From: an uncultured Ignavibacteriaceae bacterium | GTDB lineage: Bacteria > Bacteroidota > Ignavibacteria > UBA10030 | DNA: 64,000 nt | Direction of reading: 5' to 3' | NCBI GenBank assembly: GCA_964645575.1 | Contig: CAZYAM010000002.1 | Location: 719-64,718 of the forward strand | Shown: positions 7,115-60,651 of the stretch, in pieces | Position numbering within the stretch: position 1 is the first letter of the stretch | Layout of the letters: every line of letters begins with the position of its first letter | Notes under the pieces: generated by a model | Databases searched by the model: none | The model's input: only the letters and a program-made list of their open reading frames with translations | Told to the model about the DNA's origin: nothing | Position numbers and translations under genes: made by a program

Positions 7115-7251
7115 ACAATTTTGTGGTTTTCGATTTAATGATCGTCGATTTGGTGATTGGATGATTAAGTGATTAGATGATTGCGGATTGAAAACAATAG
7201 ATTTTGGAAAAGTTAATTACTAATAACTGATGACTGACCACTGACAGCTAA

Positions 7252-8127: not shown

Positions 8128-8214
8128 TTGGTTAATAGTTAATTGTTGTTTGCTGGTGAAAGAATAAATGGCAAATATAAATTTTGATAAATTGGAAGTC
8201 TATCGAAAATAAAA

Positions 8215-9156
8215 ATGCGATTCCTGGCCATTATATTTCTACTTATTAATATTGCAAGTGGTTCATTTGCACAGGAAATCCGATTAAATGCAAGAACAAA
8301 TACCGACACGTACCAGATCGGCAGCTGGATTGATGTGCTTATCTCGGGAAAATCAGATGCAGCGATTGATTCGATTGTGCCGATGATAAAGGACAGCGTC
8401 GGTTTTTTTGAAGTCATCGCAACAAAACGACAGGGCGCAGACCTGCAATGGCTGATCCGCTTAACGACCATTGATTCCGGAAAAGCATTTTTACCACCGA
8501 TAGAGTTTGATTACAAAGTGAAAAGAGATACAAGCATACATAAAGCTTTCACAAATTCACTCCTCTTAAACATTACAGGCATCGCTATCGATCCTAAGGG
8601 TAATATTAAAGATATTAAACCGCCGATGAGTGCGCCATGGTTATTTGAAGATTTTCTGCCGTACCTGATTGCGTTAATCATTCTTGCCGCAATTGCAGTC
8701 GGGTATTACTATTACTGGCGAAAAATGAAGGCAAAGAAAGACATTTTAGACGATGTTAGGGTAGTTATCCCGCCTCACCGGGAAGCATTGACAGCGTTGC
8801 GTGTGCTTGAAGAAAAGAAATTATGGCAGCAGGGATTAATAAAAGAATACTATTCGGAAATTACAGAGATTATCCGGCGGTTCTTTGAACGGCGATGGAA
8901 TATCATCGCACTCGAGATGACGACGGATGAAATCTTAGTGCAAATGAAGCATATTCCTGAAGCATTGCTGGTCTGGAAAGAAATAGATTCATTTTTCCTG
9001 ACTGCCGATTTGGTGAAGTTTGCTAAGTATCAACCGATACCGGAGGAAAATATAAAAGAGATGCATTCGTCATACGCAATTGTTCGTGTGATGGTGCCGA
9101 AGATTTCTACCGAGACAGAACCACAATCACAGGAGGCCACTGCCGATGTTCGGTGA
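8215..9156 (+). CDS. Hypothetical secreted/membrane protein of the bat operon
   Basis: It has a signal peptide (MRFLAIIFLLINIASGSFAQ) and an internal TM helix (LIALIILAAIAVGYYYYW). It is positioned between the DUF58 gene and batA. Confidence 0.5.
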   Translation: MRFLAIIFLLINIASGSFAQEIRLNARTNTDTYQIGSWIDVLISGKSDAAIDSIVPMIKDSVGFFEVIATKRQGADLQWLIRLTTIDSGKAFLPPIEFDYKVKRDTSIHKAFTNSLLLNITGIAIDPKGNIKDIKPPMSAPWLFEDFLPYLIALIILAAIAVGYYYYWRKMKAKKDILDDVRVVIPPHREALTALRVLEEKKLWQQGLIKEYYSEITEIIRRFFERRWNIIALEMTTDEILVQMKHIPEALLVWKEIDSFFLTADLVKFAKYQPIPEENIKEMHSSYAIVRVMVPKISTETEPQSQEATADVR

Positions 9157-10138
9157 TAAGTTTGCGAATCCTGTATTCTTATGGCTGCTGCTGTTGTTAC
9201 CGGCAATCGGATACTACTTATGGTGGCGCCGCGCAAAAATGAATGTGATTTTACAGTTCTCTTCGTTGCAGGTCTTAGGTAAAATTCCAAGGACAATACG
9301 TGAACAAATGAGATATATACCTCTCGGACTGCGTATGACGGCAATCGTGCTGTTTATAATTGCGCTGGCACGGCCGCAGTCGATATCGGATAAACAGAGC
9401 ATCTCAACCGAAGGAATTGATATCGTGCTTGAACTGGATCTTTCCGGCAGCATGCTGGCGGAAGATTTTAATCCTAATCGAATAGATGCGGCAAAAAAAG
9501 TTGCATCGGAGTTTATCGACGGCCGTATGAACGATCGTATCGGCCTTGTAGTATTCTCTGCTGAAAGTTTTACACAATGCCCGCTTACAACCGATTATGC
9601 CGTATTAAAGAGTCTTTTACGCGATGTAAAAAACGGAATGATTGCCGATGGCACAGCTATCGGTCTTGCTATCGCTAACGGGGTAAATCGTTTAAAGGAC
9701 AGCAAGGCGAAAAGCAAGGTAATGATCCTGCTGACAGACGGTGTTAACAACCGGGGCAATATCGACCCAATCACTGCAGCCCGGATTGCTGCGACGTATA
9801 ATATTCGTATTTACACGGTTGGTGTTGGAGCACGAGGCGAAGCGCCGTATCCAGTGCAGACGCCGTTCGGTATTCGTCGCCAGATGATTCCGGTTGATCT
9901 CGATGAGAAAGTTCTTACACAAGTGGCGGAAATGACCGGCGGTAAATACTATCGTGCCACAGATAATCGAAAATTGAAAGCAATCTACAAAGAAATTGAC
10001 CAGCTTGAACGGACAAAAATAGAAGTGATGGCTTATAAGCGGTACTCGGAATTATACGGAGGCTGGTTAATTGCAGGTCTTATCGCATTTTTATTAGAAA
10101 TATTATTAGCGAATACATTGTTGAGGAAGAATCCGTAA
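9146..10138 (+). CDS. batA: BatA-like vWA-domain membrane protein
   Basis: Two N-terminal TM helices are followed by a vWA MIDAS (DLSGSM ... TAIG ... LLTDGVNN) and a C-terminal TM. Confidence 0.75.
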   Translation: MFGDKFANPVFLWLLLLLPAIGYYLWWRRAKMNVILQFSSLQVLGKIPRTIREQMRYIPLGLRMTAIVLFIIALARPQSISDKQSISTEGIDIVLELDLSGSMLAEDFNPNRIDAAKKVASEFIDGRMNDRIGLVVFSAESFTQCPLTTDYAVLKSLLRDVKNGMIADGTAIGLAIANGVNRLKDSKAKSKVMILLTDGVNNRGNIDPITAARIAATYNIRIYTVGVGARGEAPYPVQTPFGIRRQMIPVDLDEKVLTQVAEMTGGKYYRATDNRKLKAIYKEIDQLERTKIEVMAYKRYSELYGGWLIAGLIAFLLEILLANTLLRKNP

Positions 10139-10188
10139 GAGCTGTCAGCAGTCAGTGTTCAGATGTCAGTGAAAGAAGTATACGAATA

Positions 10189-10545
10189 ATGAAAGATTTC
10201 AGACAATTAAAGGTTTGGGAGAAAGCACACGCACTTGTACTTTTAATTTATAAGGCCACTAAAAAATTTCCTAAAGAAGAAATTTATGGTTTGGTAAGCC
10301 AGTTGCGACGTGCCGCTAGTTCGATCCCGACAAATATTGCTGAAGGTTGTGGCAGAAGTGTATCTGAATTCCGGCGCTTTCTCCAAATAGCGATGGGATC
10401 AGCATGCGAAGTTGAATATCTGCTGCTTCTCTCTTATGAACTCGAGAACATTGCTGAATCTGAATATGAAGATATTCTCACTCGTGTGATTGAAGTAAAG
10501 AAAATGATTGCATCATTGATTCTTAAGCTGAGGGCTGATAACTGA
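10189..10545 (+). CDS. Four-helix-bundle protein (TIGR02436 / Avd-like, formerly 23S rRNA intervening-sequence protein)
   Basis: The protein is 118 aa. The sequence FRQLKVWEKAHALVLLIYKATKKFPKEEIYGLVSQLRRAASSIPTNIAEGCGR is diagnostic of this family. Confidence 0.7.
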   Translation: MKDFRQLKVWEKAHALVLLIYKATKKFPKEEIYGLVSQLRRAASSIPTNIAEGCGRSVSEFRRFLQIAMGSACEVEYLLLLSYELENIAESEYEDILTRVIEVKKMIASLILKLRADN

Positions 10546-10558
10546 TATCTGAACGCTT

Positions 10559-12280
10559 ATGTTAAGATTTGAATATCCCGAATATCTCTGGTTTTTAATT
10601 TTAGTACCGGCAATCGGTGCAGCGTTCTTTTTCCTTAATTTACGGCGGACAGAACAGCTGCGAAAATTCATCGGAGATAATCTCATTACGCAGCTTGCCC
10701 CCGAAGCCAGTTTAGCAATGCGAATGATCAAGCAGCTGCTTGTTCTTTTGACTCTCGCTTGCTTGATTTTTGCCATCGCAAATCCGCAGGTAGGAACCCG
10801 GCTGGAAGAAGTGAAACGAGAAGGTATTGATTTATTTGTTGCACTCGACGTCTCGCTGAGTATGAAATCGGAAGATATACGGCCGAGCAGGCTGGAGAAG
10901 GCAAAGCGGGATATATCGGAACTTCTGCGGAAACTTACTGGCGACCGTGTCGGTATGATTGTTTTTGCAGGCGATGCATTTGTGCAATTTCCGCTTACTG
11001 CCGACTACGCCGCAGCGGATTTATTTCTATCTGCCATCGATGTAGATGCAGTGCCTATCCCGGGTACAATGATAGGAAGCGCCGTTGAAGTCGCTCTTAA
11101 ATCGTTCTCAAAAGATGTACCGACTCAAAAAGCAATTGTTATCGTCTCCGACGGAGAGAATACTGAAGGTGATGTAATGGGTGCTGTAGAAGATGCAAAG
11201 AAAGCCGGTGTGCGGATTTATTCAGTTGGAATGGGAACAACCGATGGAGGCCCGATTCCAATTAATAATCAAAATGGAGAACGTATCGATTATAAACGCG
11301 ACCGGTCGGGAAGTATTGTTCTTTCCAAACTGGACGAAACTATGCTTCAACAAATTGCGTCGATAACCGGCGGAACATATCACCGGGCAACGAGCGGCGG
11401 TAATGAAATCGACGATATTTTTGACGAGCTTTGCTCTTTGGAAAAAGTGGAATTTGGAACAAAACAGGTTACAGGATATGAAACACGGTACCAGTATCCG
11501 CTGACGGTTGCAATCCTTTTTCTAATCCTTGAGCTTATGCTTTCCGCGCGGCGCGGTAAACTTGTTGCTCGACTTAAGAAATTATTGCCGATTACGGCGG
11601 CAATAATTTTCTTTGCGGTATTCTCGGAAAGCTCGATGGCTCAGACAATCCGTTCGCATATAAGTGAAGGAAACCGCGTGTATGAAAAAGGTCGCTACAC
11701 CGATGCCGAAGTGGAATACAAGAAAGCACTGGAAAAGAATCCTAAGTCGAAGGAAGCGCAATTCAATCTTGGCAACTCGTACTATAAACAGCAGCGTTTT
11801 GATGAAGCTCTGAGAGAATACGGCAGCTCCGGCGCGGTTATGAAATCTTCTGAAGAACGAGCTGTTGCATATTACAATCTGGGAAACTCATTGTATAGTT
11901 CGAACAGGTTTCAGGAAGCAGTCGAAGCATACAAACGTTCGTTAAAATTAAATCCTAATGATGACGATGCGCGGTATAACCTGCAGATGGCGCGCGAAAA
12001 GCTGAAACAGCAGGAACAACAAAAACAGCAGAAGCAGGATCAAAAACAAGACCGGCAGCAAGATCAAAAACAGAATCAACAGCAGCAAAATCAGCAGCAG
12101 AATCAACAACAAAAACCGGAACAACGGAAACAGGATCGGCCGCAGCCTCAGAAAAAGAACCAGATGCCCAAACAGGAAGCAGATCGCATCTTGGAGGCAC
12201 TGCGTAACAACGAAAAGGAAATTCAAAAGAACCTCCGTAAACGGGAAGCAGTGAGAGTGAAAGTAGATAAGGACTGGTAG
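10559..12280 (+). CDS. batB: BatB/BatC-like fusion with a vWA domain, TPR repeats and a Q/K-rich tail
   Basis: An N-terminal TM pair is followed by a vWA (DVSLSM ... VSDGENTEG) and TPR-like repeats (EAQFNLGNSYYKQQRFDEA; AVAYYNLGNSLYSSNRFQEA; ARYNLQMA). Then comes a QQKQQKQDQKQ... low-complexity region. Confidence 0.7.
   Translation: MLRFEYPEYLWFLILVPAIGAAFFFLNLRRTEQLRKFIGDNLITQLAPEASLAMRMIKQLLVLLTLACLIFAIANPQVGTRLEEVKREGIDLFVALDVSLSMKSEDIRPSRLEKAKRDISELLRKLTGDRVGMIVFAGDAFVQFPLTADYAAADLFLSAIDVDAVPIPGTMIGSAVEVALKSFSKDVPTQKAIVIVSDGENTEGDVMGAVEDAKKAGVRIYSVGMGTTDGGPIPINNQNGERIDYKRDRSGSIVLSKLDETMLQQIASITGGTYHRATSGGNEIDDIFDELCSLEKVEFGTKQVTGYETRYQYPLTVAILFLILELMLSARRGKLVARLKKLLPITAAIIFFAVFSESSMAQTIRSHISEGNRVYEKGRYTDAEVEYKKALEKNPKSKEAQFNLGNSYYKQQRFDEALREYGSSGAVMKSSEERAVAYYNLGNSLYSSNRFQEAVEAYKRSLKLNPNDDDARYNLQMAREKLKQQEQQKQQKQDQKQDRQQDQKQNQQQQNQQQNQQQKPEQRKQDRPQPQKKNQMPKQEADRILEALRNNEKEIQKNLRKREAVRVKVDKDW
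11990..12195. repeat. Low-complexity cag/caa/aaa-rich tract encoding the Q/K-rich segment of BatB
   Basis: The tract is a run of cagcag/caaaaa codons. It generates spurious antisense ORFs at 11948-12226. Confidence 0.6.
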
Positions 12281-12356
12281 AGTCGGAACTATGAGCAGTC
12301 GATAGAAAACGATTTGCTGTTTGTAAAGAACTTGTGGTTAAAAGCCGTTAAGAAAG

Positions 12357-14198
12357 ATGACAAATATCAAAAGAAAATATTTTCCGCATATAAATGTATT
12401 GTTTTTTATTCTATTCTTTGCTGCCTTTCTGCAAGCACAGGATGGGACGTTTACTGTCGAAGCGGATCCGATGAGTGTGGCAGCAGGAGAACAATTTCGA
12501 TTGACTTTTACATTCAATGGAAGCGATGTTAATAACGTTAGGAATCTGAAAGCTCCGGACTTGAATCAATTTGTCGTCATTTCGGGGCCAAATCAATCGA
12601 CGAATATGCAGTGGATCAACGGCCAAATGTCTGCTTCAATTGCATATTCCTATATTCTTTATGCACGTCAGACAGGAAAATTCACTATCGGTTCGGCAAC
12701 AATTGAGTATATGGGAAAAACGCTGAAGTCAAATTCGATTCAAATTGAGGTCACAAAAGGTAAGCCAAAACAGCAGCAGAAACAACAGGAGCAGTCCAGC
12801 ATTGATATTGGCGATAATTTGATAGTTAGAGCTTTTTCAGACAAACAGCGTGTTAGGCTCGGTGAGCAATTAATTATAACCTTCAAGTTGTATTGGCGCG
12901 TTTCACTTACCAAGTACGAACTAGCAAAAGCACCGGCGTTTGACGGTTTCTGGGGTGAAGACTTTGATATGCCAAAGCAGCCTGTCCAAAAGAACGAGAC
13001 CTTTAACGGCAAGAAATATCGTTCTGTGGTGATAAAAAAGACGGCATTATTTGCCACTCAGGCCGGTAATCTAAGAATTGCGCCGCTCGAAGTTCGTTGT
13101 GCCGTACAAGTTCAAATGAAACGGCGGAGTAATGATCCGTTTGATCAGTTCTTCAATGATCCGTTCTTCCAACAAGTCCAGACGAAAAATCTGGAAGTGA
13201 AATCCAATCCGCTTGTGATCACCGTTGATCCTCTTCCGATCAATGCGCCATCCGGATTTTCTGGTGCTATCGGACGGTTTACATTCAATGCAAGTGTGGA
13301 TAAAAAAAGTGTGAAAGCGGGTGATCCTATTACATTGAAAGTAGCAGTAGGAGGGTCCGGCAACATCAAGCTGGTTACACTTCCCAAACCGCAATTGCCT
13401 GCAGATATTGAATCGTACGAACCGGAAATTTCGGAAGATATTTCACGTGACGGCGGTGTTATTCGCGGGAAGAAAATTGCGGAATATCTGCTCATTCCGC
13501 GTAATGCGGGTCAACGTATTATCGAACCGATGGTATTTGTCTATTTTGACCTTGATAGGAAAGAATATATTACGCTTCATTCTTCACGATTCGAATTTTC
13601 CATTGAACCGGGCAAAGAATATTCCGGTAGCAATGTGAGCACTATTTCGAAAGAAGATGTTCGGATACTCGGAGAAGATATTCGTTTTCTTAAACTTTCT
13701 ATCGAAAATCTTCAGCTAAAAGATAATTCGGGCTCTTCAAAGTGGTTTGTATTTTGTATGGTGCTGCCGCCGATTGTATTTGCCGGAGCATGGTTTTTCC
13801 GTAAAAGGATGGAAAAAATCTATGGTGATATGCCCCGGCTTTTATTTGAGACAGCAGGGCGTGAAGCGTCGCGACGTCTCAAAAAAGCACATGCACTGCT
13901 TGAACAGGGGAATACCGAGAGTTATCATGCTGAGATTCTTAAGGCGCTTACGGATTACCTTGAGCATAAACTCAGAACTGCAAAAGCTGACTTTGCCGTG
14001 GATGCAGCAGTTGAACAATTACGGCAGTACGGTGTGAAAGAAGAGATTATTCGATCATTAAAAACATGTATAGAACGCGCAGAGTTCGCTCGTTTTGCAC
14101 CGGCTTCTGATACGGCCGAAACACGAAAAGAATTGCTCGATATCGCTGCCGGTGCTATCAATGGTATTGAGCGGACTTTCAGTAAACGAGGTACGTAA
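12357..14198 (+). CDS. batD: BatD-like oxygen-tolerance protein
   Basis: The protein is 613 aa with a signal peptide, an internal poly-Q linker and a C-terminal TM (FVFCMVLPPIVFAGAWFF). It sits in the canonical bat operon position. Confidence 0.65.
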   Translation: MTNIKRKYFPHINVLFFILFFAAFLQAQDGTFTVEADPMSVAAGEQFRLTFTFNGSDVNNVRNLKAPDLNQFVVISGPNQSTNMQWINGQMSASIAYSYILYARQTGKFTIGSATIEYMGKTLKSNSIQIEVTKGKPKQQQKQQEQSSIDIGDNLIVRAFSDKQRVRLGEQLIITFKLYWRVSLTKYELAKAPAFDGFWGEDFDMPKQPVQKNETFNGKKYRSVVIKKTALFATQAGNLRIAPLEVRCAVQVQMKRRSNDPFDQFFNDPFFQQVQTKNLEVKSNPLVITVDPLPINAPSGFSGAIGRFTFNASVDKKSVKAGDPITLKVAVGGSGNIKLVTLPKPQLPADIESYEPEISEDISRDGGVIRGKKIAEYLLIPRNAGQRIIEPMVFVYFDLDRKEYITLHSSRFEFSIEPGKEYSGSNVSTISKEDVRILGEDIRFLKLSIENLQLKDNSGSSKWFVFCMVLPPIVFAGAWFFRKRMEKIYGDMPRLLFETAGREASRRLKKAHALLEQGNTESYHAEILKALTDYLEHKLRTAKADFAVDAAVEQLRQYGVKEEIIRSLKTCIERAEFARFAPASDTAETRKELLDIAAGAINGIERTFSKRGT

Positions 14199-14962
14199 TG
14201 AAATATCTTCAGTGGATAATTATTATCGGAGTCAGTGCTCTGATTGTGAGCGCGGGATGGGCGCAGACTCCGGAAGATGTGTTCAATCGCGGAAATGAAC
14301 TTTACCGTGCAGGAAAGTATCAAGATGCGGTAAAAGAATATGAACGTATCATCAAACAAGGATACTCAAGCGCCGAGCTCTATTATAATTTGGGCAATGC
14401 ATATTATCGGAATGAGCAGCTTGCCCGGGCTATTCTCTCATATGAACGTGCTGCTCAATTGCAGCCGAATGATCCCGACATAACTCACAATCTAAAGCTC
14501 GTGTATCTCAAGACAATCGATCGTATTGAACCCGTGCCGGAAATGTTTTTTATTCAGTGGATGCGTGCCATCGGTTCTCTAATATCGCCTGAAAAAGTTA
14601 AATTCTTTTTTATTCTAAGCTGGATACTTCTTTTCGGATCACTTGCAGCGATGTACTTCATTTTACGGGCGGATTTCCTTCGTGTTGCCCGAACAATATT
14701 CTTCGTGTCCTTTATATCGGTTGTTATCTGGGCAGCTATGCTGGGTATTCAATCATTTCAGGAGACAACGCAGGATAAGGCGATTATCACCGCACAGATC
14801 GTGACTGCAAAGTCGTCCCCCGATGCTAATAGCGTAGATGCATTTGTAATTCATGAAGGAGTGAAGGTGAAACTCACTGATTCAGTTGCCGATTGGGTGA
14901 AGATTACGCTCGCCGACGGGAAAGTAGGCTGGATCCCCGCCGATCAGTGCGAACGTATTTAA
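14198..14962 (+). CDS. batE: BatE-like TPR plus SH3b protein
   Basis: It has a signal peptide and TPR repeats (YQDAVKEYERIIKQ, ELYYNLGNAYYRNEQLARA, SYERAAQLQPND). A TM is followed by a C-terminal SH3b-like module (VKITLADGKVGWIPADQCE). Confidence 0.6.
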   Translation: MKYLQWIIIIGVSALIVSAGWAQTPEDVFNRGNELYRAGKYQDAVKEYERIIKQGYSSAELYYNLGNAYYRNEQLARAILSYERAAQLQPNDPDITHNLKLVYLKTIDRIEPVPEMFFIQWMRAIGSLISPEKVKFFFILSWILLFGSLAAMYFILRADFLRVARTIFFVSFISVVIWAAMLGIQSFQETTQDKAIITAQIVTAKSSPDANSVDAFVIHEGVKVKLTDSVADWVKITLADGKVGWIPADQCERI

Positions 14963-51063: not shown

Positions 51064-51384
51064 ATGGGAACATCGAAAAAAGAAGCTTTCAGCGATAATC
51101 AAAATCGGCTTGCCGATCTGGCAAAAGCGCTGGCTCATCCTGCCCGGATTGCAATACTGGAATTTTTATCTAAAAGAAATTCGTGTATGTGCGGTGATAT
51201 TGTAGATGAGATTCCGCTTTCACAGGCAACCGTATCCCAGCATCTTGCGGAGTTAAAACGTATCGGCCTTATTAAAGGCGAGATAGAAGGCCCGAAAGTG
51301 TGCTATTGCATCAATAAAAAAATCTGGCAGAAAGCAAAACAAATTCTTAATCGGTTTCTGACAGATGCAAAATCATATTGCTAA
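51064..51384 (+). CDS. arsR: ArsR/SmtB-family metalloregulator (arsenite-type)
   Basis: The CxC metalloid site sits in the HTH region ([14 protein letters not shown]...[14 protein letters not shown]). The protein is 106 aa. Confidence 0.75.
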
Positions 51385-51443
51385 ATATTTTTTTTGCACT
51401 AATATATCATAATATTACAATACTCATCTTTAAGAGATATTAT

Positions 51444-52253
51444 ATGAACTCAGAACAAAAAATCAAAAAAATGGTAAAGGAGAAATATGGGGCCATTGCA
51501 CAGCAAACCCAAAAATATAATCAGACATCTTGCTGCGGGAGTAGGCGCGGATGTTCGAACGTGGAATTTTCTATTATGGCAGAAGATTACACAAAACTAT
51601 CAGGATATGTCCCCGATGCCGATCTCGCATTAGGATGCGGCTTACCGACAAAATATGCACGTATCAAACGGGGTAATACGGTTGTGGATCTAGGTTCCGG
51701 TGCTGGCAATGACTGTTTTATTGCACGATCAATTACAGGTGATACCGGGCGCGTCATCGGTATCGATATGACGGAGGCGATGACTGCAAAAGCAAAAACA
51801 AATGCTTCAAAATATGGATTTGAGAATGTAGAATTCCGCTTGGGCGATATTGACAACATGCCGATTGAAAATAACACTGCCGATGTGGTAGTCAGCAACT
51901 GTGTTATGAATCTTGTTCCGAATAAGAAAAAAGCCTTTTCAGAAACGTTCCGTATTATGAAAAGCGGCGGACATTTCAGTGTCTCAGATATTGTTTTGAA
52001 AGGTGAACTGATCGATGAGCTTCGAAAGGAAGCGGCACTCTATGCCGGATGTATTTCCGGTGCAGTTCAGAAGGAAGAATATTTACAAATTATCAGGGAT
52101 ATCGGTTTCATTAAAATAACTGTTAAAGAAGAACGCAAAATTGATATTCCCAATTATATTCTGGCCAAATTTCTTACCATAGATCAATTGAGCGGATATA
52201 ACAAAAGCTATGTCGGGATATTTAGTATAACAGTAAATGCAGAGAAACCATGA
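51444..52253 (+). CDS. arsM: Arsenite S-adenosylmethionine methyltransferase ArsM-like
   Basis: The likely start is MNSEQKIK. The SAM motif is VVDLGSGAGNDCF. Three conserved Cys contexts are present (LGCGLP, VVSNCVMNLVP, YAGCISGA). Confidence 0.75.
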   Translation: MNSEQKIKKMVKEKYGAIAQQTQKYNQTSCCGSRRGCSNVEFSIMAEDYTKLSGYVPDADLALGCGLPTKYARIKRGNTVVDLGSGAGNDCFIARSITGDTGRVIGIDMTEAMTAKAKTNASKYGFENVEFRLGDIDNMPIENNTADVVVSNCVMNLVPNKKKAFSETFRIMKSGGHFSVSDIVLKGELIDELRKEAALYAGCISGAVQKEEYLQIIRDIGFIKITVKEERKIDIPNYILAKFLTIDQLSGYNKSYVGIFSITVNAEKP

Positions 52254-52781: not shown

Positions 52782-53036
52782 ATGTCTACTGTTGATTTAG
52801 CTACTATTCAACCGGCCAAGACGGCCGATGCTCGAGCGATGGCTTGTCCAGGTCCATTGCTGGAAGCTAAAAAAAGCATCGGATTGGTTAAAGTTGACGA
52901 AGTACTGGAAATTTGGTCGGGCGACCAAAGCACAAAAAAAGACATGCCGGCCTGGTGCGCAAAAGTGGGACACGAGTTTCTTGGTGTCGTTGTTGCCGAT
53001 GGATATGACCGGATTTTTATTCGACGCAAAAAGTAG
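52782..53036 (+). CDS. tusA: TusA-family sulfur-carrier protein
   Basis: It is 84 aa with the CPxP active-site motif (ARAMACPGPLLEAKK) and the conserved ...DMPAWCAKVGHEFL. Confidence 0.75.
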   Translation: MSTVDLATIQPAKTADARAMACPGPLLEAKKSIGLVKVDEVLEIWSGDQSTKKDMPAWCAKVGHEFLGVVVADGYDRIFIRRKK

Positions 53037-53100: not shown

Positions 53101-53562
53101 ATGATAGCGAAAGAAAAAATTCACGAACATAAAATACTGATTCTTGCAACCTTGTCAGGCGGTTATATGGGAGCAGATTCGGCCGGACAGTCTCATTTAG
53201 AGTACTCATCCAACGCTTACATTTTGCCAGTAAGAACAGCCGCGATCTTTCCACCGCAATTCTATATCAATGCGTTCAAGAAAGGCATTGATGGCATTAT
53301 CATAATGTACAGTGGCGCTGACTGTCCATACAAGGGTGCACCGGAGCGGACCGCAGAAATCATCAACAAGACTTACGGCTTGATGAAGGAACAAGGTCTT
53401 GATACGCGACGGCTTCGCCTTGCAGCAATCTGCACTGTATGTGTGCGCCCATTTCTCGGTGAGATCGAAAAGATGAACACGCTGCTCGCTGAAATTGGAT
53501 CAGTGTCGTACAATCAATCCCCGTTACAATCTGCAAATGCACAGATCATAAGGCAGGAATAG
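53101..53562 (+). CDS. MvhD/FlpD-like iron-sulfur subunit encoded as a stand-alone gene
   Basis: It aligns with the methyl-viologen-reducing hydrogenase delta-subunit pattern (ILILAT.SGGYMGADSAG..LEYSSN.YILPVR.AAIFPPQFYINAFKKGIDGIIIM.SGADCPYKGAPERTAE...LGLDTRRLRLA). Confidence 0.7.
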   Translation: MIAKEKIHEHKILILATLSGGYMGADSAGQSHLEYSSNAYILPVRTAAIFPPQFYINAFKKGIDGIIIMYSGADCPYKGAPERTAEIINKTYGLMKEQGLDTRRLRLAAICTVCVRPFLGEIEKMNTLLAEIGSVSYNQSPLQSANAQIIRQE

Positions 53563-53578
53563 GGAGCATCGCATAGCT

Positions 53579-54883
53579 ATGAAGAACCTTCATGTAGATA
53601 CACTGGTTATCGGTGGTGGGATTGCTGGAATGCAGTCCGCTCTTGATCTAGCGGATCAGGGCTACCGTGTAGCTCTTGTAGAGAAGAATCCGAGCATCGG
53701 TGGAAAAATGATTGGACTCAGCAAGGTCTTTCCCACATTGGACTGCTGCAGTTGTATCACCACACCGAAAATGTCGGCCGTTGCTCATCACGAAAACATT
53801 GAGTTGTTAACCTACAGCGAAGTAGAAGTAGTATCACGCAAGAAAAATGGCTTCACTGTCCAAGTCCTGAAAAAACCCTTGTATGTTAAGGAAAAAGATT
53901 GTACCGGCTGCCGCTCGTGCGAACAGGTCTGCCCGCTTGATGTACCGGACAATGAGAATGAATTTAGCCGTACCGCTCACCGAGTAATATATGTTCCTTT
54001 TACGACGGCTGTGCCTCAAAAAGCCTTGATTGATATTGATTACTGCCTTTTTTGCGGTAAATGCGTGCAAACCTGCCCCTCGAACGCGATTGATTTTAAC
54101 CAACAGTCTCAACAACTGGAAATTGAAACCCGGACAATTATCCTGGCGACCGGTTACAAGGTAACGCCGTATAATGCCAAGAAGGAGTATGGTGCGGGAA
54201 AACTTTTAAACGTGATCGATGGATTGATGATGGAACGCCTGCTTGCGCCGACCGGCCCATACGGACGAGTATTACGCCCTTCGGATGGCAAGCAACCTGC
54301 ATCCATCGCCTACGTCCAGTGTGCCGGTTCACGCGATCAAACGTTGGGTGTACCGTACTGCTCACGCGTCTGCTGCATGTACGCGATTAAACAAGCAATG
54401 CTGCTCTCCGGGACACTGCCCATGGCAGATATTTCCATTTACTACATGGATATTCGCGCTTTTGGCAAGGGTTACGAGCAGTTCTACCAGAGTGCAAAAG
54501 CGATGGGGATCGAGTTTATTAAAGGCAAGGTAGCGCGTATTACTGAAGATGAAAATCATAATCCTTCTGTACGGGTCGAATTAATTGATGACAGCTCCAG
54601 GGTTGTTGAACGAAAACATGATATAGTGGTTCTCTCGGTAGGTATGCTGCCGGGTTGGAATCCTGAATCGTTAATCGGAGTATCGACAGCCGAGGATGGT
54701 TTCGTTCAAATTCCTAATTACAATATTGCACCAACGATAACGGCGCAGTATGGAATCTTTGCTACAGGTACTGCTATTGGTCCGATGGACATTGTAGACA
54801 GCATTATGACAGCTAGTGCCGCAGCCGCAGAAGTTGCGGCTTTTATTCGATCGCAGAATCGTAATGAGATGGCTCTAATCTAA
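53579..54883 (+). CDS. QmoA-like short HdrA-family FAD flavoprotein with an inserted 2x[4Fe-4S] ferredoxin domain
   Basis: The FAD motif is VIGGGIAGMQSALDLA. Two ferredoxin motifs are present (CTGCRSCEQVCP, CLFCGKCVQTCP). HdrA signatures CAGSRD and YCSRVCCMYA are present. It lacks the HdrA N-terminal Cys domain. Confidence 0.8.
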   Translation: MKNLHVDTLVIGGGIAGMQSALDLADQGYRVALVEKNPSIGGKMIGLSKVFPTLDCCSCITTPKMSAVAHHENIELLTYSEVEVVSRKKNGFTVQVLKKPLYVKEKDCTGCRSCEQVCPLDVPDNENEFSRTAHRVIYVPFTTAVPQKALIDIDYCLFCGKCVQTCPSNAIDFNQQSQQLEIETRTIILATGYKVTPYNAKKEYGAGKLLNVIDGLMMERLLAPTGPYGRVLRPSDGKQPASIAYVQCAGSRDQTLGVPYCSRVCCMYAIKQAMLLSGTLPMADISIYYMDIRAFGKGYEQFYQSAKAMGIEFIKGKVARITEDENHNPSVRVELIDDSSRVVERKHDIVVLSVGMLPGWNPESLIGVSTAEDGFVQIPNYNIAPTITAQYGIFATGTAIGPMDIVDSIMTASAAAAEVAAFIRSQNRNEMALI

Positions 54884-54902: not shown

Positions 54903-56984
54903 ATGGCTGAGGAATCGAAAAAACTCGAACCGACCGGAGCAAGTCAAGCCGGTTCTATTTCGGAAGAACCTCGTATTGGAGTTTACATCTGCGATTGTGG
55001 AGGCAACATCAGCGATACTGTACGCTGTGATCAAGTTGCAAACGCGCTCAGGAAACTTCCCAACGTGGTTGTCTCGCGGCGCTATCAATTTATGTGTTCT
55101 GATCCGGGTCAAAAGCTGATCATTGATGACATTAAAGAAAACGGTATCAACCGGGTTGTAGTGGGAGCGTGTTCCATTTTTCTGCATGAACAGACATTCC
55201 GTAAAACCGTACAGCGTGCAGGATTGAATCCGTATCTGTACTGCCACATCGGCTTGCGAGAGCAAAATAGCTGGGTGCATCATACGTACCCAATCGGTGC
55301 TACAACTAAAGCCATTCGTATGATGTCCGCCGGTATCACCAAAGCTCGCCTGATGAAGCCGCTGGAAGATATACATTTGGAAGCACACAAACATGTACTC
55401 GTTATTGGTGGCGGTGTGGCAGGCTTGCGTTCCGCGTTGTCACTTGCACGTAGCGGCTTACAAGTTACGTTGATTGAAAAAAGTCATTTCCTGGGTGGTC
55501 ATCTCGCACAGTGGGAACAGGTCTTTCCGACCGAGGAAGACGCACGAACATTACTGAACGGGCTGATCGAGGATGCAAGAGTACAGCCCAATCTCCGTAT
55601 CCTTACCGGGGCTGAGATGATTTCCGCTAAGGGCTATGTCGGTAACTTTACGATTTGCGTTCGCCAGCAGCCGCGCGGTGTCGCTGGTAATTTCGAGTTA
55701 ATAGATAAAGCCATCGCTGTCTGCCCGGTCGAAGTGCCGGACGAATTCAATTTTGGGATGATCAAGCGTAAGGCGATCTATCGATCTTATGCGGGTTGTT
55801 ACCCTGCAAGCCCGGTCATTGACAGAGAACATTGCACCAAGTGTGGGGAATGTCTGAAGGTTGATAAGAAAAACAGCATACATCTCGATGAACCTGCGAT
55901 TGAGATTGAATTAAAGGTAGGAGCGGTCGTTATAGCGACCGGTTTCCGTTTGTACGAACCCTTTCAGGGTGAAATGGGTTACGGTAAATTGTCAGGAGTG
56001 ATTACTCTTCCTCAATTGGAACGTCTATTATCGAGTGGAAGATCGACAGAGAATGCCCTGAAATGGAACGGACACACTGTCCGCAGTATGGCAATGATCC
56101 ATTGTGTGGGCAGCCGCCAAATTGAGGGTGTGCACGCACCCCAGCCGGACGGGAAGGTGAACGACTATTGTTCGAGAGTGTGCTGCACAGCTACATTAAG
56201 TACGGCTAACAGAATTCGTGAACGATTCCCGGACATAAACATTTATGATGTCTATCAAGACATTCGGACATATGGTCGTGGACATGAAGATTATTATACT
56301 AAAGCATCGAAGAATCTTGTAACCTTCCTGCGTTATATCGGTGAAGAAATTCCAGAAGTGGTGCAAGCTGAGGAAGGCGCAGAGTATTCACTGATTGTGA
56401 GAGTGAAAGATCATTTAACATGGGGAGAAGAGATCGAATTACCGGTAGATCTGATCGTATTGTCTGTAGGAATGATGCTGAGTCCGGTGAAAGATTTGGT
56501 TGAAATGCTTAAAGTAGCACCGGGAAATGACCGTTTCTTACTGGAAGTACATCCCAAGTTGCGGCCCGTTGAGACAGCTGTGGCAGGCGTAGTGTTGGCC
56601 GGTACGGCACAAAGTCCGATGAATATTCAGGAAAGTTGTGCTGCGGCTGAAGCTGCAGCTACAAAAGTTGTTGTCCTGCTCAACCGAGGAAAAGTCGATC
56701 TTGAACCTTACATTGCGAGAGTTGACCCCAAACGCTGTAAGGGTACGGGAGAATGTGTACGCGTATGCCCGCAAGAAGACGCAGTCCATTTGGAGACTTT
56801 TATAGATAACGGGAAAACGCTCCAGCGAGCCGTGATCACCGCAGCTAACTGCAATGGATGCGGCGTGTGTGTTAGTGCCTGTCCAAACCACGCGATCGAT
56901 GTGCAGGGTTGGAGTCTTAATGATTTTAATGCAATGGTGGAAGCGATAACATCGGAGATACCTATTCCGGAAAGTACTTCATGA
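54903..56984 (+). CDS. Full-length HdrA/QmoB-like flavoprotein (N-terminal Cys-cluster domain, FAD domain, C-terminal 2x[4Fe-4S] ferredoxin) without a fused MvhD domain
   Basis: The N-terminus is IGVYICDCGGNISD...YQFMCSDPGQ...NRVVVGACS...LNPYLYCHIGLREQNSWVH. The FAD motif is VIGGGVAGLRSALSLA. HdrA signatures CVGSRQ and YCSRVCC are present. The C-terminal ferredoxin motifs are CKGTGECVRVCP and CNGCGVCVSACP. Confidence 0.8.
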   Translation: MAEESKKLEPTGASQAGSISEEPRIGVYICDCGGNISDTVRCDQVANALRKLPNVVVSRRYQFMCSDPGQKLIIDDIKENGINRVVVGACSIFLHEQTFRKTVQRAGLNPYLYCHIGLREQNSWVHHTYPIGATTKAIRMMSAGITKARLMKPLEDIHLEAHKHVLVIGGGVAGLRSALSLARSGLQVTLIEKSHFLGGHLAQWEQVFPTEEDARTLLNGLIEDARVQPNLRILTGAEMISAKGYVGNFTICVRQQPRGVAGNFELIDKAIAVCPVEVPDEFNFGMIKRKAIYRSYAGCYPASPVIDREHCTKCGECLKVDKKNSIHLDEPAIEIELKVGAVVIATGFRLYEPFQGEMGYGKLSGVITLPQLERLLSSGRSTENALKWNGHTVRSMAMIHCVGSRQIEGVHAPQPDGKVNDYCSRVCCTATLSTANRIRERFPDINIYDVYQDIRTYGRGHEDYYTKASKNLVTFLRYIGEEIPEVVQAEEGAEYSLIVRVKDHLTWGEEIELPVDLIVLSVGMMLSPVKDLVEMLKVAPGNDRFLLEVHPKLRPVETAVAGVVLAGTAQSPMNIQESCAAAEAAATKVVVLLNRGKVDLEPYIARVDPKRCKGTGECVRVCPQEDAVHLETFIDNGKTLQRAVITAANCNGCGVCVSACPNHAIDVQGWSLNDFNAMVEAITSEIPIPESTS

Positions 56985-57295
56985 AGTTAAAAAATAAAGA
57001 AGAGACTAGAAAGCAAACGCATATTTTGGGCGAACTACGTCAGCAGCACGGCGCTCAGGTGAAACATGCTAAAGAGTTACTAAAGGAACAACAGACCGTT
57101 CGCAAGACATTACAGAGTGTTTTGCAGCATGAGCCGCAGTCGGTCCCTCAATTAGCTGCAACAACGAAAATAGCTGCACATGTAATTTTGTGGCATATTG
57201 CAGCGATGAAAAAATATGGTGTTGTTGAAGAAGCGGGGATGGACGAGAACAGAGAGTACTACCTGTATCGTCTGGCGAAGGAGGCGAAATCATGA
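56981..57295 (+). CDS. Small translationally coupled ORF (104 aa), possibly winged-helix-like
   Basis: Its start and stop codons overlap the upstream and downstream genes (ATGA overlaps). The helical protein has a possible wHTH-like segment (IAAHVILWHIAAMKKYGVVEE...REYYLYRL). It has no Cys. Confidence 0.4.
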   Translation: MKLKNKEETRKQTHILGELRQQHGAQVKHAKELLKEQQTVRKTLQSVLQHEPQSVPQLAATTKIAAHVILWHIAAMKKYGVVEEAGMDENREYYLYRLAKEAKS

Positions 57296-58434
57296 GTCAG
57301 CGCGCTGATCCTCGCTTTGTTTCTGAACTGAAAAAGTATGGAATGGTGAACATTGAGTCCTGCTTCAATTGCGGCAATTGCACTGCAGTGTGCCCGCTTT
57401 CGACTGAAGAAGATAATTTTCCGCGCCGAATGATTCGCTATTCACAAATCGGCATGGAAGAAAAATTACTCAGCAGCAAAGAACTCTGGATGTGTTACTA
57501 CTGCGGCGAATGCACTATCACCTGTCCGCGTCAAGCTGATCCCGGCGAATTTATGGCAGCGGCTCGACGTTACGCGATTGCTAAATATGATCCTCTTGGA
57601 TTAGCCAAACTACTTTACACATCTTCAACTTTCACTGTTCTGTTCCTCGTTGTACTGGCTGCTGTGTTGGGAACATTCTTTTATTCCTTTCATGGCCCGA
57701 TGCCGAGTGATACATTTCGCTTGTTCGAGTTTATCCCTGCGGAAGTGATTCACGATTCCGGCGTGATTGCGGGAATCATCATCGTACTCGTGGCTCTTGC
57801 GGGAATGGTAAATATGATTATCCATATTAGAAAAGAAAAAAAGTTACCCAAGGGTGCAAGGCTCAATTGGTTTGGAGCGATGTGGGATACGATTGTCGTT
57901 GAAGGATTGGGGCAAAGCCGCTATCGGAAGGACTGTGAAGCATATTCAAAAGAGCAACATTGGTATAAAAAAAGGTGGTTTATTCACGCTGCAATAATGT
58001 GGGGTTTTCTGGGATTGTTTTTGGCTACTGTATTAGATTACTTTTTGTATTTGCTTGAAATCAAACCCATTGGAACATGGGTGCCGATATGGTATCCGGT
58101 CAGATTGTTGGGTACACTGGCAGGAGTTGTGATGATGTATGGTGTTTCGGCTGCCATTATCCGCAGATTGAAAAAAGCTGACGAAACATCGAAGAATTCA
58201 ACACCGTCGGATTGGATCTTCTTAATCCTTCTCTGGCTGGGAGGGTTGACCGGTTTTGCACTGGAGATTGCCCTATATTTACCACAGCCGCACGCTTGGA
58301 GTTACTGGATGTTGTTGATACATCTTATTGTGGTAGTAGAATTGCTTGTCTTGCTGCCTTTTTCCAAATTTGCACATGTGGTCTATCGGACGGTAGCTCT
58401 GTACGTGTACGCTCTTAAGCCTCTATCTAAATGA
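57292..58434 (+). CDS. QmoC-like fusion of an HdrC-type 2x[4Fe-4S] domain with a NarI/HdrE-like multi-helix membrane domain
   Basis: The N-terminus has CFNCGNCTAVCP and CYYCGECTITCP. Six predicted TM helices follow, carrying conserved His residues (HDSGVIAGIII, HIRKEK, HAAIMWGF, HLIVVVELL). Confidence 0.7.
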   Translation: MSQRADPRFVSELKKYGMVNIESCFNCGNCTAVCPLSTEEDNFPRRMIRYSQIGMEEKLLSSKELWMCYYCGECTITCPRQADPGEFMAAARRYAIAKYDPLGLAKLLYTSSTFTVLFLVVLAAVLGTFFYSFHGPMPSDTFRLFEFIPAEVIHDSGVIAGIIIVLVALAGMVNMIIHIRKEKKLPKGARLNWFGAMWDTIVVEGLGQSRYRKDCEAYSKEQHWYKKRWFIHAAIMWGFLGLFLATVLDYFLYLLEIKPIGTWVPIWYPVRLLGTLAGVVMMYGVSAAIIRRLKKADETSKNSTPSDWIFLILLWLGGLTGFALEIALYLPQPHAWSYWMLLIHLIVVVELLVLLPFSKFAHVVYRTVALYVYALKPLSK

Positions 58435-58527: not shown

Positions 58528-58890
58528 ATGGCTGAAAAAATGATCGTTGTATGCAACGGTGTAGCGCCAAGTAATATCATGCCCGCATTGATTTTTGCCT
58601 CATCCGGTATTGCACTCGATTATGAGGTGCACATGTTCTTTTGTCCGGCTGGTGCACAGGCACTCGTTAAAGGCGAATTAGAGAAAATCGGTACGACGAA
58701 GGGCATGCCAAATCCCGTAGAGCTTTTCAACACGATCCTGGACCAGAAAGGTAAGGTTGTGTTCTGTGAACTAGCAATTGTAAACAAGGGCATAGACCCG
58801 AAGGATTTGCGCGATAGCCGTATCGTGATCGAGAAAGTACCGCCGTTTTTGATGGCAGCAGAGGGTGCAAAGATGACATTTGTTTTCTAA
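58528..58890 (+). CDS. DsrE/DsrF-family (TusD-like) protein
   Basis: It is 120 aa with the patterns MIVVCNGVAP...VHMFFCPAGAQALVKG...KVVFCELAIVNKGI, which match the DsrE/DsrF fold and its Cys positions. Confidence 0.65.
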   Translation: MAEKMIVVCNGVAPSNIMPALIFASSGIALDYEVHMFFCPAGAQALVKGELEKIGTTKGMPNPVELFNTILDQKGKVVFCELAIVNKGIDPKDLRDSRIVIEKVPPFLMAAEGAKMTFVF

Positions 58891-59025: not shown

Positions 59026-60651
59026 TTATTTCATAAATGTAATCTTTATTGTATTTGTAAAGTCCTTTCCTTTCTCCGATTGCGCGGTGAGACGTGCAAA
59101 ATATATTCCGCTTGCTAGTCTTCCGGTATCGAATGTAACTGAATAGTTACCGGATTTCTTCGTTTCATTTACCAGTTCTGCTATTTCACGTCCGAGTATA
59201 TTGTATATCTTCAAACTTACATGACTATTCCCTGAAATCTGATATTTTAAAGTTGTCGATGGATTGAATGGATTCGGAAAATTCTGAAATAAGGATATTT
59301 TAAAAGGGATGCTGATGTCTCTGGTGTTTTTAACTTTAGTAGGTTGAATTATACTCTCCAGTTGTGGAATAAGCCAATCGTTGATACCGCCGTCGATTTG
59401 TGCATCAGAATTGCTCCAGATGTAATCCCGAAAACCATTTAAAATCCGCCAGGCATTCATATCATACCTGATTGCCTCTCCTGCTGTAACAGCGACTCTA
59501 TGATCCATCCCGTCCAGTATAACTTGTTTATCCATATCAATAGATATTGAATCCCACATTGCTATTGCTTCATTTCTCAGATTCTTAATAGTCGGAAGTG
59601 ATGGGCTTCCCGTTGCATAGAATTCAATTGTGTGTGCGATTGTCATAATAACTGCCATTGCTTTTGAGGGACTTTTCGTAGTCTTTAAAATTCCAAATCC
59701 ACTTTCTCCCCATCCTACATTATGAGTTCCGTTGTACGATGGAAGAGCGGCGATATCCCAGTAATTGGTACTGTCGCTCAATGTTCCGCAATACCATGAA
59801 CCGACCGTTACCATAGCTGTTCTGCCTGAACCTAAGGGATTACCCTGCATGGTGTCGGAAAACATTTCCCTATAAGGTATAAAGTAATTCTGCCAGATAC
59901 CCGAATGGCTCCACAAATATCCATCGCGCATGTATTGCGGTATACTTACACTGCCGTCTTGGTTTATAAGCTGCGGTGGGCCGAACATGCAAAGGAAACT
60001 TATTCCATTATTCCACGCCCAATGAAAACCGTATTGCAAAATATGATTTTTATCGAATTCAGGATGAAGAGTATTATGTCCATTAACATCTAGGGTCAAT
60101 AATGCTCCTATTTGTGCAAGTTTGTTTACATCCCAGGATTCTCCGTCCGCGTACAGTGAATCATAACTGTGCGGAGGATAGGGAATTCCTGCATGATCGA
60201 ACATATCTTTATTATAATAAAATAGATCCGGACTCTGGGTCAGAGGAAGATATATCAGGCCGTTTTTATTTCTGAATTTATGGAAAGAAGATGTATCCAT
60301 TTGAGTCAGAACCGATTGTGGAATATATGGAGTAAGATCAAGAAAATGATCCCAGAGTACACTATATCGTAAAGCTGTTATGTCTGGGGGGCTACCCGCT
60401 GCAATTCTTGATAATAATGAATCTGCTGCATCAAACGAACAGGTGGCAGTAGTGATATCCATAACTAGTTCAATACTATCCTGAGAAAGATTATACGCCT
60501 GGACGTATCGTATAAAATCACTGTCAAGCGTACCCTCATCGTTTGATGCTTGAATAAACCATTTAATTTGTGTTCTTCCTGACTGTCCAAAGAATGTATT
60601 TGGGCACAAGACAAAAGCAAAGAATATGCAAATAGCAAATCTACTACGCAT
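59026..60651 (-). CDS. Secreted family-1 solute-binding-protein-like protein with a C-terminal T9SS sorting domain
   Basis: It has a signal peptide. An SBP_bac_1-like region is present (LIYLPLTQSPDLFYYNKDMFDHAGIPYPP, WAWNNGISF). The C-terminal ~80 aa carry the T9SS CTD pattern (LFQNFPNPFNPSTTLKYQ...GIYFARL...ITFMK). Confidence 0.6.
   Translation of the reverse strand: MRSRFAICIFFAFVLCPNTFFGQSGRTQIKWFIQASNDEGTLDSDFIRYVQAYNLSQDSIELVMDITTATCSFDAADSLLSRIAAGSPPDITALRYSVLWDHFLDLTPYIPQSVLTQMDTSSFHKFRNKNGLIYLPLTQSPDLFYYNKDMFDHAGIPYPPHSYDSLYADGESWDVNKLAQIGALLTLDVNGHNTLHPEFDKNHILQYGFHWAWNNGISFLCMFGPPQLINQDGSVSIPQYMRDGYLWSHSGIWQNYFIPYREMFSDTMQGNPLGSGRTAMVTVGSWYCGTLSDSTNYWDIAALPSYNGTHNVGWGESGFGILKTTKSPSKAMAVIMTIAHTIEFYATGSPSLPTIKNLRNEAIAMWDSISIDMDKQVILDGMDHRVAVTAGEAIRYDMNAWRILNGFRDYIWSNSDAQIDGGINDWLIPQLESIIQPTKVKNTRDISIPFKISLFQNFPNPFNPSTTLKYQISGNSHVSLKIYNILGREIAELVNETKKSGNYSVTFDTGRLASGIYFARLTAQSEKGKDFTNTIKITFMK

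Follow-up and report, generated by a model that had tools for sequence, protein, structure and literature searches.

The subject of this study is FlpD*, a protein encoded in a stretch of 64,000 nucleotides from an uncultured Ignavibacteriaceae bacterium (contig CAZYAM010000002.1; the whole stretch is called here the window, and positions are counted from its first letter). FlpD* is classed here as a member of the FlpD fold family, and neither as a [2Fe-2S] protein of the MvhD kind nor as part of a classical QmoABC complex. In particular, the canonical cysteines of MvhD have been lost across the FlpD* family, an invariant CxxC pair is found at another place in the fold, and the gene belongs to an operon of seven genes in which sulfur carriers, two HdrA paralogues and a QmoC-like membrane protein are encoded together. 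It is very probable that FlpD* is a genuine subunit of this seven-gene module. The best overall explanation, held at slightly less than even confidence, is that the module connects sulfur carriers with the quinone pool and that FlpD* contributes to it a thiol-based CxxC site; taken by itself, the thiol-relay role of the CxxC pair is a plausible but distinctly uncertain assignment.

The reading frame of flpD* runs from an ATG to a stop codon and is preceded by an AGGA Shine-Dalgarno-like motif about 12 nucleotides upstream. Its product covers the Pfam FlpD model entirely (PF02662, model positions 1-123 of 123, E 8.3e-17, 61.8 bits at a cut-off of 22.3) and matches by sequence the MvhD chains of the Mvh-Hdr, Fdh-Hdr and Elp-Hdr complexes in the PDB, with E values from 1e-8 to 9e-5 (9sw2_D, 1e-8; 5odc_D, 3.6e-7; 7bkb_F, 1.8e-6). 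An AlphaFold2 model built on 28 homologues (predicted local distance difference test, pLDDT, 75; predicted template-modelling score, pTM, 0.71) adopts the four-stranded parallel alpha/beta MvhD fold with the topology b-a-b-a-b-a-b-a. The N-terminal half comprises b1 (residues 12-17), a1 (20-27), b2 (39-44) and a2 (52-60), and the C-terminal half b3 (65-70), a3 (80-97), b4 (105-109) and a4 (115-132). When this model was compared with the PDB by Foldseek, the top four matches were the MvhD/ElpC chains 5odh_D, 5odc_D, 8rvu_F and 7bkb_F (E 3e-10 to 3e-8, template-modelling score 0.70-0.81), the next match having an E value of 4.5e-3.

The initial annotation had expected the [2Fe-2S] cysteine ligands to appear once the protein was aligned with MvhD, and this expectation failed. 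Specifically, the MvhD segment FCCNWCSY reads LATLSGGY in the window protein, VMCSGR reads PVRTAA and GCHxGDCHY reads MYSGADCPY, and C75 is the sole canonical cysteine left. A census of 183 distinct members of the FlpD* family generalizes this picture. Canonical positions 16, 17, 20, 45 and 70 are occupied by cysteine in none of the members, position 45 varying freely among R, M, V, I and L, while the sixth canonical site, position 75, is serine in 134 of them (73%) and cysteine in the other 49. All 183, by contrast, carry C111 and C114 (C111-T-V-C114 in the window), which belong to the motif AICTVCVRPF immediately after strand b4, and in 110 of the 183 these are the only two cysteines across the whole domain. 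Other positions are fixed to a similar degree: D74 is found in 182 members, H32, which stands in place of a conserved arginine of MvhD, in 179, and D26 and D64 are almost invariant as well. As the canonical cysteine positions are lost across the family, FlpD* cannot be a canonical [2Fe-2S] MvhD and, judging from its sequence, very probably lacks the canonical cluster site. Since the C111/C114 pair follows b4 in a flavodoxin-like topology and the loops after b1-b3 carry the cysteines of MvhD, it would be placed at the sheet edge that bears the cluster in MvhD.

More distant relatives show how the cysteines of this domain vary. An exhaustive HMMER search of 1.84 billion cluster representatives returned just 243 matches at E <= 1e-3, and the full-length ones fall into four cysteine patterns that range from the window type to canonical MvhD (CNWC / MCSG / GCHxGDCHY / WISAAEG). 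Between these extremes, a group of four-cysteine proteins (group C, comprising P0157, P0167 and others) reads LPC[ST]S / TDC / AICSVC, with cysteines at positions 45, 75, 111 and 114, and the five-cysteine protein P0126 (EKCAY / AACGSDCPY / AICTVC) combines part of the extra cysteines with the CxxC. The P0126 locus has the order arsR-tusA-flpD-hdrA-hdrA-105 aa-qmoC-dsrE, that is, the same operon as FlpD*, and that of P0157 reads tusA-flpD-short hdrA before its contig ends. From these graded patterns and the gene context of their carriers it follows that the CxxC after b4 is the hallmark of a TusA-associated FlpD clade, with the other cysteines varying around it.

A cysteine-poor FlpD domain was also observed outside this clade. 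At locus L084 (8001-14174) it reads ADDMxxY / VPSSS / ESEEKSSPY / EFITVM and forms a fusion in which it follows the C-terminal ferredoxin domain of an 805-residue HdrA, in a cluster that also holds hdrC, hdrB (CCG) and fumarate-reductase-like FrdB/FrdA genes; therefore, the cluster ligands of MvhD have been lost more than once. The cysteine-poor fused domain of P0235/P0271 (group D) was considered as the C-terminus of a QmoB and rejected, because it is part of an HdrA-FlpD fusion beside hdrC, hdrB and frdBA-like genes; P0225, the second candidate, yielded just 3 matches, all on short contigs. Likewise, the 248-residue P0247, which starts as TusA, ends as a four-cysteine FlpD and is joined by an Arg/Pro/Gly-rich linker that looks out of frame, was rejected as a true TusA-FlpD fusion and not used as evidence, being most likely an artefact in which a frameshift or the gene calling has joined the adjacent tusA and flpD.

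The conservation of the gene neighborhood was followed by scanning one genome per species for FlpD* relatives, which gave 237 genomes, and by fetching the best 80 loci. A separate flpD is followed by a short hdrA in 80 of 80 loci, so that the order given in the initial annotation (a gene for a 153-residue FlpD-like protein, then a short QmoA-like and a long HdrA-like one) is correct and recurs in related genomes; the distinct subunit composition deduced from it is a fair inference. TusA (58-86% identity) is encoded upstream of flpD in 79 loci, and the remaining one is cut by the contig start. The full order tusA - flpD - short hdrA - long hdrA - small winged helix-turn-helix (wHTH) gene - qmoC-like - dsrE-like is found in 65 of the 80, and the 15 loci without all seven genes are mostly interrupted by contig ends. 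These best 80 loci belong mostly to Anaerolineae or other Chloroflexota, with the Ignavibacteriales/Bacteroidota, NC10, Desulfobacterota, Gemmatimonadota and one metagenome-assembled genome (MAG) of the Methanosarcinales also represented; the closest homologues of the operon come from Bacteroidetes and Ignavibacteriales MAGs (L001, L002). Median identity to the window copy amounts to 70% for TusA, 68% for the short HdrA, 65% for FlpD*, 59% for the long HdrA, 41% for the wHTH protein and 38% for the QmoC-like protein.

In the window, the consecutive spacers of the operon measure 64, 16 (from flpD* to the short hdrA), 19 (from the short to the long hdrA), -4, -4 (the wHTH gene overlapping the long hdrA and the qmoC-like gene by 4 bp each) and 93 bp. 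This tight spacing, together with the 4-bp overlaps, indicates that the seven genes form one transcription unit. When the operon was scanned for promoters and terminators, the counts did not exceed those of shuffled controls; the sole clear terminator-like hairpin (58998-58970, minus strand) belongs to the convergent gene, and no operator-like palindrome was found upstream of tusA in the window. A literature search, which did not reach Chernyh 2020, found no publication describing a tusA-flpD-hdrA-hdrA-qmoC-dsrE operon. The seven-gene operon is widespread and apparently undescribed.

Both flavoproteins of the operon have HdrA or HdrA2 as their best NCBIfam and PDB matches (E 1e-143 to 1e-181), the PDB entries searched with the two paralogues including no Qmo structure. 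The short paralogue aligns to HdrA residues ~143-560 only. That is, it has no N- or C-terminal domains and consists of the flavin adenine dinucleotide (FAD)/thioredoxin-reductase core with an inserted ferredoxin domain in which both four-cysteine motifs are present. Its cysteines conserved across loci are C56, C59, C108-118, C156-166 and C248-266; the core cluster is kept, and the pair C56/C59 (97% conserved) corresponds to C194/C197 of the HdrA in 5odc. The long paralogue comprises an N-terminal domain with five conserved cysteines (C30, C32, C42, C65 and C90), the FAD core and the core cluster, and it ends in a ferredoxin domain with no fused MvhD domain: the next gene overlaps its stop codon, and the FlpD domain is encoded 1.3 kb upstream. 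It has lost the equivalent of the C194/C197 pair, NDCSIC being replaced by EEDART. Its inserted ferredoxin domain (residues ~270-320) is degenerate, with one cluster's worth of ligands left in the window copy and the CxxCxxC present in just 40-51% of orthologues, and its C-terminal ferredoxin domain (residues 612-660) has seven invariant cysteines instead of eight, with CKGTGEC in place of CxxCxxC. The losses in the long HdrA complement the short one, in the manner that Chadwick et al. (PMC9012536) proposed for HdrA heterodimers, and consequently the two sequences would fit an asymmetric heterodimer.

The remaining subunits and the recurrent neighbors bear on the function of the module. The active-site cysteine of TusA and C80 of the DsrE-like protein are each at least 90% conserved; tusA is the first gene of the conserved operon and the dsrE-like gene the last, the latter being present in every locus that extends that far and duplicated in 14 loci. 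The QmoC-like subunit combines an HdrC-like domain with 2 x 4 cysteines and a NarI/HdrE-type cytochrome b domain (Pfam Fer4_8 and Nitrate_red_gam), with eight cysteines, C215, H232, H344 and H362 conserved to at least 90%; its residues 6-370 align to positions 2-358 of the 360 in NCBIfam model NF038018, at 227.7 bits compared with an equivalog cut-off of 300. The wHTH gene is present in every locus that reaches that position, and its product has a weak ArsR-like winged-helix signature, the homologue profile matching PH1932 and NmtR weakly. A long N-terminal helix is predicted in the wHTH protein, which may be either a subunit or an autoregulator; a single-sequence structure model of it (all-helical, pTM 0.35) was discarded.

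Directly upstream of tusA, 42 of the 80 loci, the window not among them, encode a two-cysteine ArsR-type regulator with cysteines at consensus positions 20 and 91, about 71 residues apart. This spacing resembles that of the persulfide sensors SqrR, BigR and sHdrR, and the protein is a candidate sulfane-sulfur-responsive repressor of the operon. Its gene points in the same direction as tusA, which it in many cases overlaps or directly adjoins (for example L059, 7192-7521). A LysR regulator is found in 43 loci and a YeeE/YedE Sulf_transp protein (PF04143) in 12; recurrent flank families are limited to regulators, YeeE/YedE and a second DsrE. Genes for apr, sat, dsr or hydrogenase were detected neither in the operon, nor among the window open reading frames of at least 150 residues scanned across 1-37 kb, nor recurrently in the 8 kb on either side of the 80 loci. 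The same regions yielded no electron-donor module (MvhAG hydrogenase, FdhAB or ElpAB), and no HdrB/CCG or lipoate-binding/lipoyl-carrier domain is present in the seven operon proteins, the recurrent flanks or the scanned window reading frames. On the basis of the neighbors TusA, DsrE, the two-cysteine ArsR-type regulator and YeeE/YedE, and with no apr, sat or hydrogenase nearby, the context points to protein-bound sulfane sulfur rather than to adenosine 5'-phosphosulfate (APS) reduction or to hydrogen. FlpD* itself has 1,789 matches in a collection of 5.8 billion proteins (66-99% identity among the best 120), and its relatives bear the names 'F420-non-reducing hydrogenase iron-sulfur subunit', 'coenzyme F420-reducing hydrogenase delta subunit' and 'hydrogenase iron-sulfur subunit'; in view of the cysteine census and the gene context, the 'hydrogenase' and 'iron-sulfur' parts of these labels are doubtful, and the names are probably wrong.

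Genes of the seven-gene operon in the window and the principal match or defining property of each product
Feature	Coordinates	Strand	Product	Match or property
tusA	52782..53036	+	TusA-type sulfur carrier, 84 aa	Pfam PF01206, E 4e-17; CPGP active-site Cys
flpD*	53101..53562	+	stand-alone MvhD/FlpD-fold protein, 153 aa	no canonical [2Fe-2S] Cys set
short hdrA paralogue	53579..54883	+	QmoA-like flavoprotein, 434 aa	PDB match 8rvv_A, E 4e-122
long hdrA paralogue	54903..56984	+	HdrA-like flavoprotein, 693 aa	5odc_A residues 2-635, E 5.5e-147
small wHTH gene	56981..57295	+	Cys-free protein, 104 aa	Pfam HTH_20, E 9e-4, below cut-off
qmoC-like	57292..58434	+	membrane subunit, 380 aa	NCBIfam qmoC NF038018, E 2.8e-67
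dsrE-like	58528..58890	+	sulfur-carrier protein, 120 aa	Pfam DrsE_2 and DsrE; conserved Cys80

How these components might work together can be proposed by analogy with the methanogen complexes. There, MvhD sits on an arm that HdrA's N- and C-terminal domains form, and HdrA Cys202/Cys205 lie between the MvhD cluster and the FAD, where they bind an unidentified ligand together with MvhD Asp71 (PMC13580544). The two HdrA cysteines correspond to C56/C59 of the short HdrA, and Asp71 aligns with D74 of FlpD*. A long HdrA that has both arm domains is always encoded alongside FlpD*. Given the MvhD docking site and these correspondences, one FlpD* would most likely dock on the arm of the long HdrA at the position of MvhD, facing the cysteine pair and the FAD of the short HdrA. 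The short and long HdrA would pair as an asymmetric heterodimer, with the QmoC-like subunit as its membrane anchor. The C111xxC114 motif would then be a thiol-based site, either a redox-active dithiol/disulfide or a persulfide acceptor, connecting the Cys-persulfide carriers TusA and DsrE to the chain of flavins and iron-sulfur clusters. As a whole, the complex might exchange electrons between protein-bound sulfane sulfur (TusA-SSH, DsrE-SSH) and the menaquinone pool, possibly with a ferredoxin branch through the C-terminal ferredoxin domain, and could run in either direction, as sulfane-sulfur reduction or oxidation. In its most complete form, this proposal would mean that an MvhD-fold protein has been converted to a CxxC sulfur/dithiol relay, that the persulfides of TusA and DsrE are direct partners of an HdrA-type flavin and that the module is a new sulfane-sulfur:menaquinone oxidoreductase, a combination that we regard as improbable. 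If it were true, bifurcation from sulfide/persulfide (~-270 mV) to menaquinone (-74 mV) and ferredoxin (~-450 mV) might occur, and the reverse operation as a confurcating persulfide reductase would also be possible. The module itself is widespread in Anaerolineae and other uncultured anaerobes.

Several observations weigh against the thiol-based proposal and its quinone coupling. The AlphaFold2 model of FlpD* is only moderate, with dips in confidence at residues 21-30 and 71-80, blocks that take in parts of the loops after b1 and b3, and the placement of C111/C114 is deduced from fold topology. MAGs are the source of all 80 loci and of every named protein, with no cultured organism among the matches. 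In two Gemmatimonadota MAG loci (L064, 8187-8902; L065, 11864-12580), the wHTH gene is followed by dsrE within about 80 bp, leaving no room for a QmoC-like gene; a soluble version of the module without membrane anchor thus seems to exist, and since these loci have no QmoC-like gene, quinone coupling is not universal. Finally, sister FlpD subfamilies in the same kind of operon (group C, P0126) are richer in cysteine, which suggests that the CxxC began as an iron-sulfur ligand pair, and it may still be one.

This last point leads to the alternative that FlpD* binds a non-canonical iron-sulfur cluster. On this view, C111 and C114 would contribute two ligands, and the rest would be supplied by D74, H32 and S/C75 of FlpD* or by C56/C59 of the short HdrA, in the latter case as an inter-subunit cluster beside the FAD, and FlpD* would stay an electron-transfer subunit with a relocated site. 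Such a cluster, which we consider possible but rather doubtful, would agree with the cysteines at 45, 75, 111 and 114 in relatives from tusA-hdrA operons (group C) and with P0126, where cysteines after b1 and b3 coexist with the CxxC; these patterns make the CxxC look like an ancestral ligand pair that was relocated from the loop after b1 to the one after b4. It would agree also with the retention of C75 in 49 of the 183 FlpD* members, the window copy included, with the alignment of D74 to the ligand-coordinating Asp71 of MvhD (PMC13580544) and with the high conservation of the partner cysteine pair in the short HdrA. However, most members have just two cysteines in the domain, position 45 is not constrained and position 75 is mainly serine. 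The accessory cysteines differ in position among subfamilies, for which a CxxC-centred function is a better fit than one fixed site, and the bridging cluster would be hypothetical.

The opposite extreme is a purely structural relic that stabilizes or positions the arm of the long HdrA, with a cysteine pair that takes part neither in redox chemistry nor in sulfur transfer. The loss of the canonical ligands in the FlpD* family and the existence of cysteine-poor FlpD domains elsewhere (the HdrA-fused group D in its hdrCB and frdBA-like cluster) speak for such a scaffold; nevertheless, it appears distinctly unlikely, because C111/C114 are kept in 183 of 183 members and H32, D26, D64 and D74 hardly vary at phylum-level divergence, and because the degree of conservation of FlpD* is close to that of TusA and the short HdrA, while a scaffold would not be expected to fix two cysteines and lose the others. 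Far less probable still is a canonical [2Fe-2S] MvhD module split from QmoB and working in an APS-reductase-linked Qmo complex. The FlpD domain and fold and the adjacent QmoA-like, HdrA-like and QmoC-like genes agree with it, but the canonical cysteines are absent from both the alignment and the census, the scanned window reading frames and the recurrent flanks of the 80 loci contain no apr or sat, the QmoC-like protein falls below the NCBIfam equivalog cut-off and the long paralogue has an HdrA architecture, with N-terminal domain and C-terminal ferredoxin domain. As to the possibility, also raised in the initial annotation, that the open reading frame is a frameshifted or decayed fragment (pseudogene) of a neighboring gene, it can be considered refuted: the complete FlpD model is covered, the gene has its own start, ribosome-binding site and stop, it is placed upstream of the HdrA genes and not behind them, it is a separate reading frame in all 80 loci and the protein is under strong purifying selection.

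Other genes of the window lie around the operon. At 51064-52253 (+), an ArsR regulator that carries the arsenite-type motif CMCGD precedes an arsenite methyltransferase (ArsM; PRK11873, 335 bits, cut-off 263). A role of the two in the system was examined and set aside, given the arsenite-type motif and the fact that, among the contigs examined, the pair stands beside the operon just in near-identical ones from a single organism; the regulator that is conserved at other loci is a different, two-cysteine ArsR-type protein. The pair appears to serve arsenic methylation on its own, immediately upstream of the sulfur operon. At 6131-14962 (+) there is a Bat-type aerotolerance operon (MoxR AAA_3, DUF58, BatA, VWA/TPR, BatD), and the protein encoded at 59026-60651 (-) bears a T9SS C-terminal sorting domain; taken together, these features suggest a bacterium of the Bacteroidota/Ignavibacteriota group as the origin of the window.

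With respect to the significance of these findings, MvhD is regarded as the conserved [2Fe-2S] connector through which electrons reach HdrA's bifurcating flavin, and how the gap of ~22-25 Å between its cluster and the FAD is crossed is still an open question (PMC12350162, PMC13580544). The FlpD* family keeps the fold, the neighboring aspartate and the HdrA cysteine pair without the canonical cluster site, and therefore offers a natural test of what the MvhD position contributes beyond the cluster. In addition, the operon may represent a so far undescribed connection of the quinone pool with cytoplasmic sulfur trafficking (TusA, DsrE, YeeE). At least 237 species-level genomes contain it, most of them from soil and sediment Anaerolineae whose sulfur metabolism is poorly known.

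The initial annotation had described the arrangement as a hybrid of two known ones, and its account of these two was right: QmoB carries an MvhD-like domain (Ramos 2012, PMC3333476), and in methanogens MvhD is a separate subunit that docks on HdrA (PMC12350162, PMC13580544). FlpD* shares with MvhD/VhuD/ElpC (5ODC/5ODH chain D, 7BKB chain F, 8RVU chain F) the Pfam domain and the fold and, like MvhD, it is encoded by a separate small gene near hdrA and keeps the aspartate (D74, Asp71) and the GAD/YP-type motifs. It differs from MvhD in that five of the six cysteine positions are never cysteine and the sixth is usually serine, in the invariant CxxC after b4 and the histidine at position 32, and in its partners, which are TusA and DsrE, with no hydrogenase, formate dehydrogenase or Elp donor genes nearby. 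As for the QmoABC of sulfate reducers and Chlorobi (PMC3333476), the operon has in common with it a short and a long HdrA-like flavoprotein, a QmoC-type subunit and an MvhD-like element. Unlike in QmoABC, this element is a separate first gene instead of a domain at the C-terminus of the long subunit, that subunit shows the full HdrA architecture, the score of the QmoC-like protein is below the equivalog cut-off, there is no aprBA/sat linkage and three extra genes, tusA, wHTH and dsrE, are conserved. A Qmo complex in the APS-reductase sense is thus not borne out by the gene content of the scanned window reading frames and of the flanks of the 80 loci, and the Qmo framing is further weakened by the QmoC-like score (227.7 bits, not 300) and by the conserved partners TusA and DsrE-like protein.

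Nor is the hybrid layout as such new. [quoted passage not shown] The FlpD* operon resembles it in joining a separate MvhD-type gene, two HdrA paralogues and a QmoC-type membrane subunit; the Archaeoglobi cluster has a [NiFe] hydrogenase as donor and presumably a normal MvhD, whereas the FlpD* operon has an MvhD-like protein without ligands and flanking sulfur carriers. Moreover, 'type II' QmoABC complexes, with QmoAB nearer to HdrA, are reported for 'Ca. Vulcanisaeta moutnovskia' and Ammonifex degensii (Chernyh 2020, cited in PMC8477390; PMC10504309), in organisms with or without Dsr/Apr, their function being stated as unknown (PMC10504309). Compared with these by description only, the operon has flavoproteins that appear much nearer to methanogen HdrA than would be expected of classical Qmo, and no adjacent Dsr/Apr; in contrast, the accessible papers mention no Cys-depleted separate FlpD gene, TusA or DsrE for type II clusters. 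These precedents reduce to some extent the novelty of the FlpD* operon, while neither a stand-alone FlpD that is depleted of cysteines and carries an invariant CxxC nor its constant association with TusA/DsrE is described in any accessible paper. A further parallel is offered by sHdr, the sulfur-oxidizing Hdr-like system with TusA, DsrE3, LbpA and an ArsR-type regulator (PMC11094781, PMC6067878). In analogy with sHdr, the FlpD* operon associates Hdr-type flavoproteins with TusA and DsrE-family transferases and often with a two-cysteine ArsR-type regulator. Unlike sHdr, it is devoid of HdrB/HdrC catalytic (CCG) subunits and of a lipoate-binding protein, and is built instead on two HdrA paralogues, a QmoC-like membrane anchor and FlpD*.

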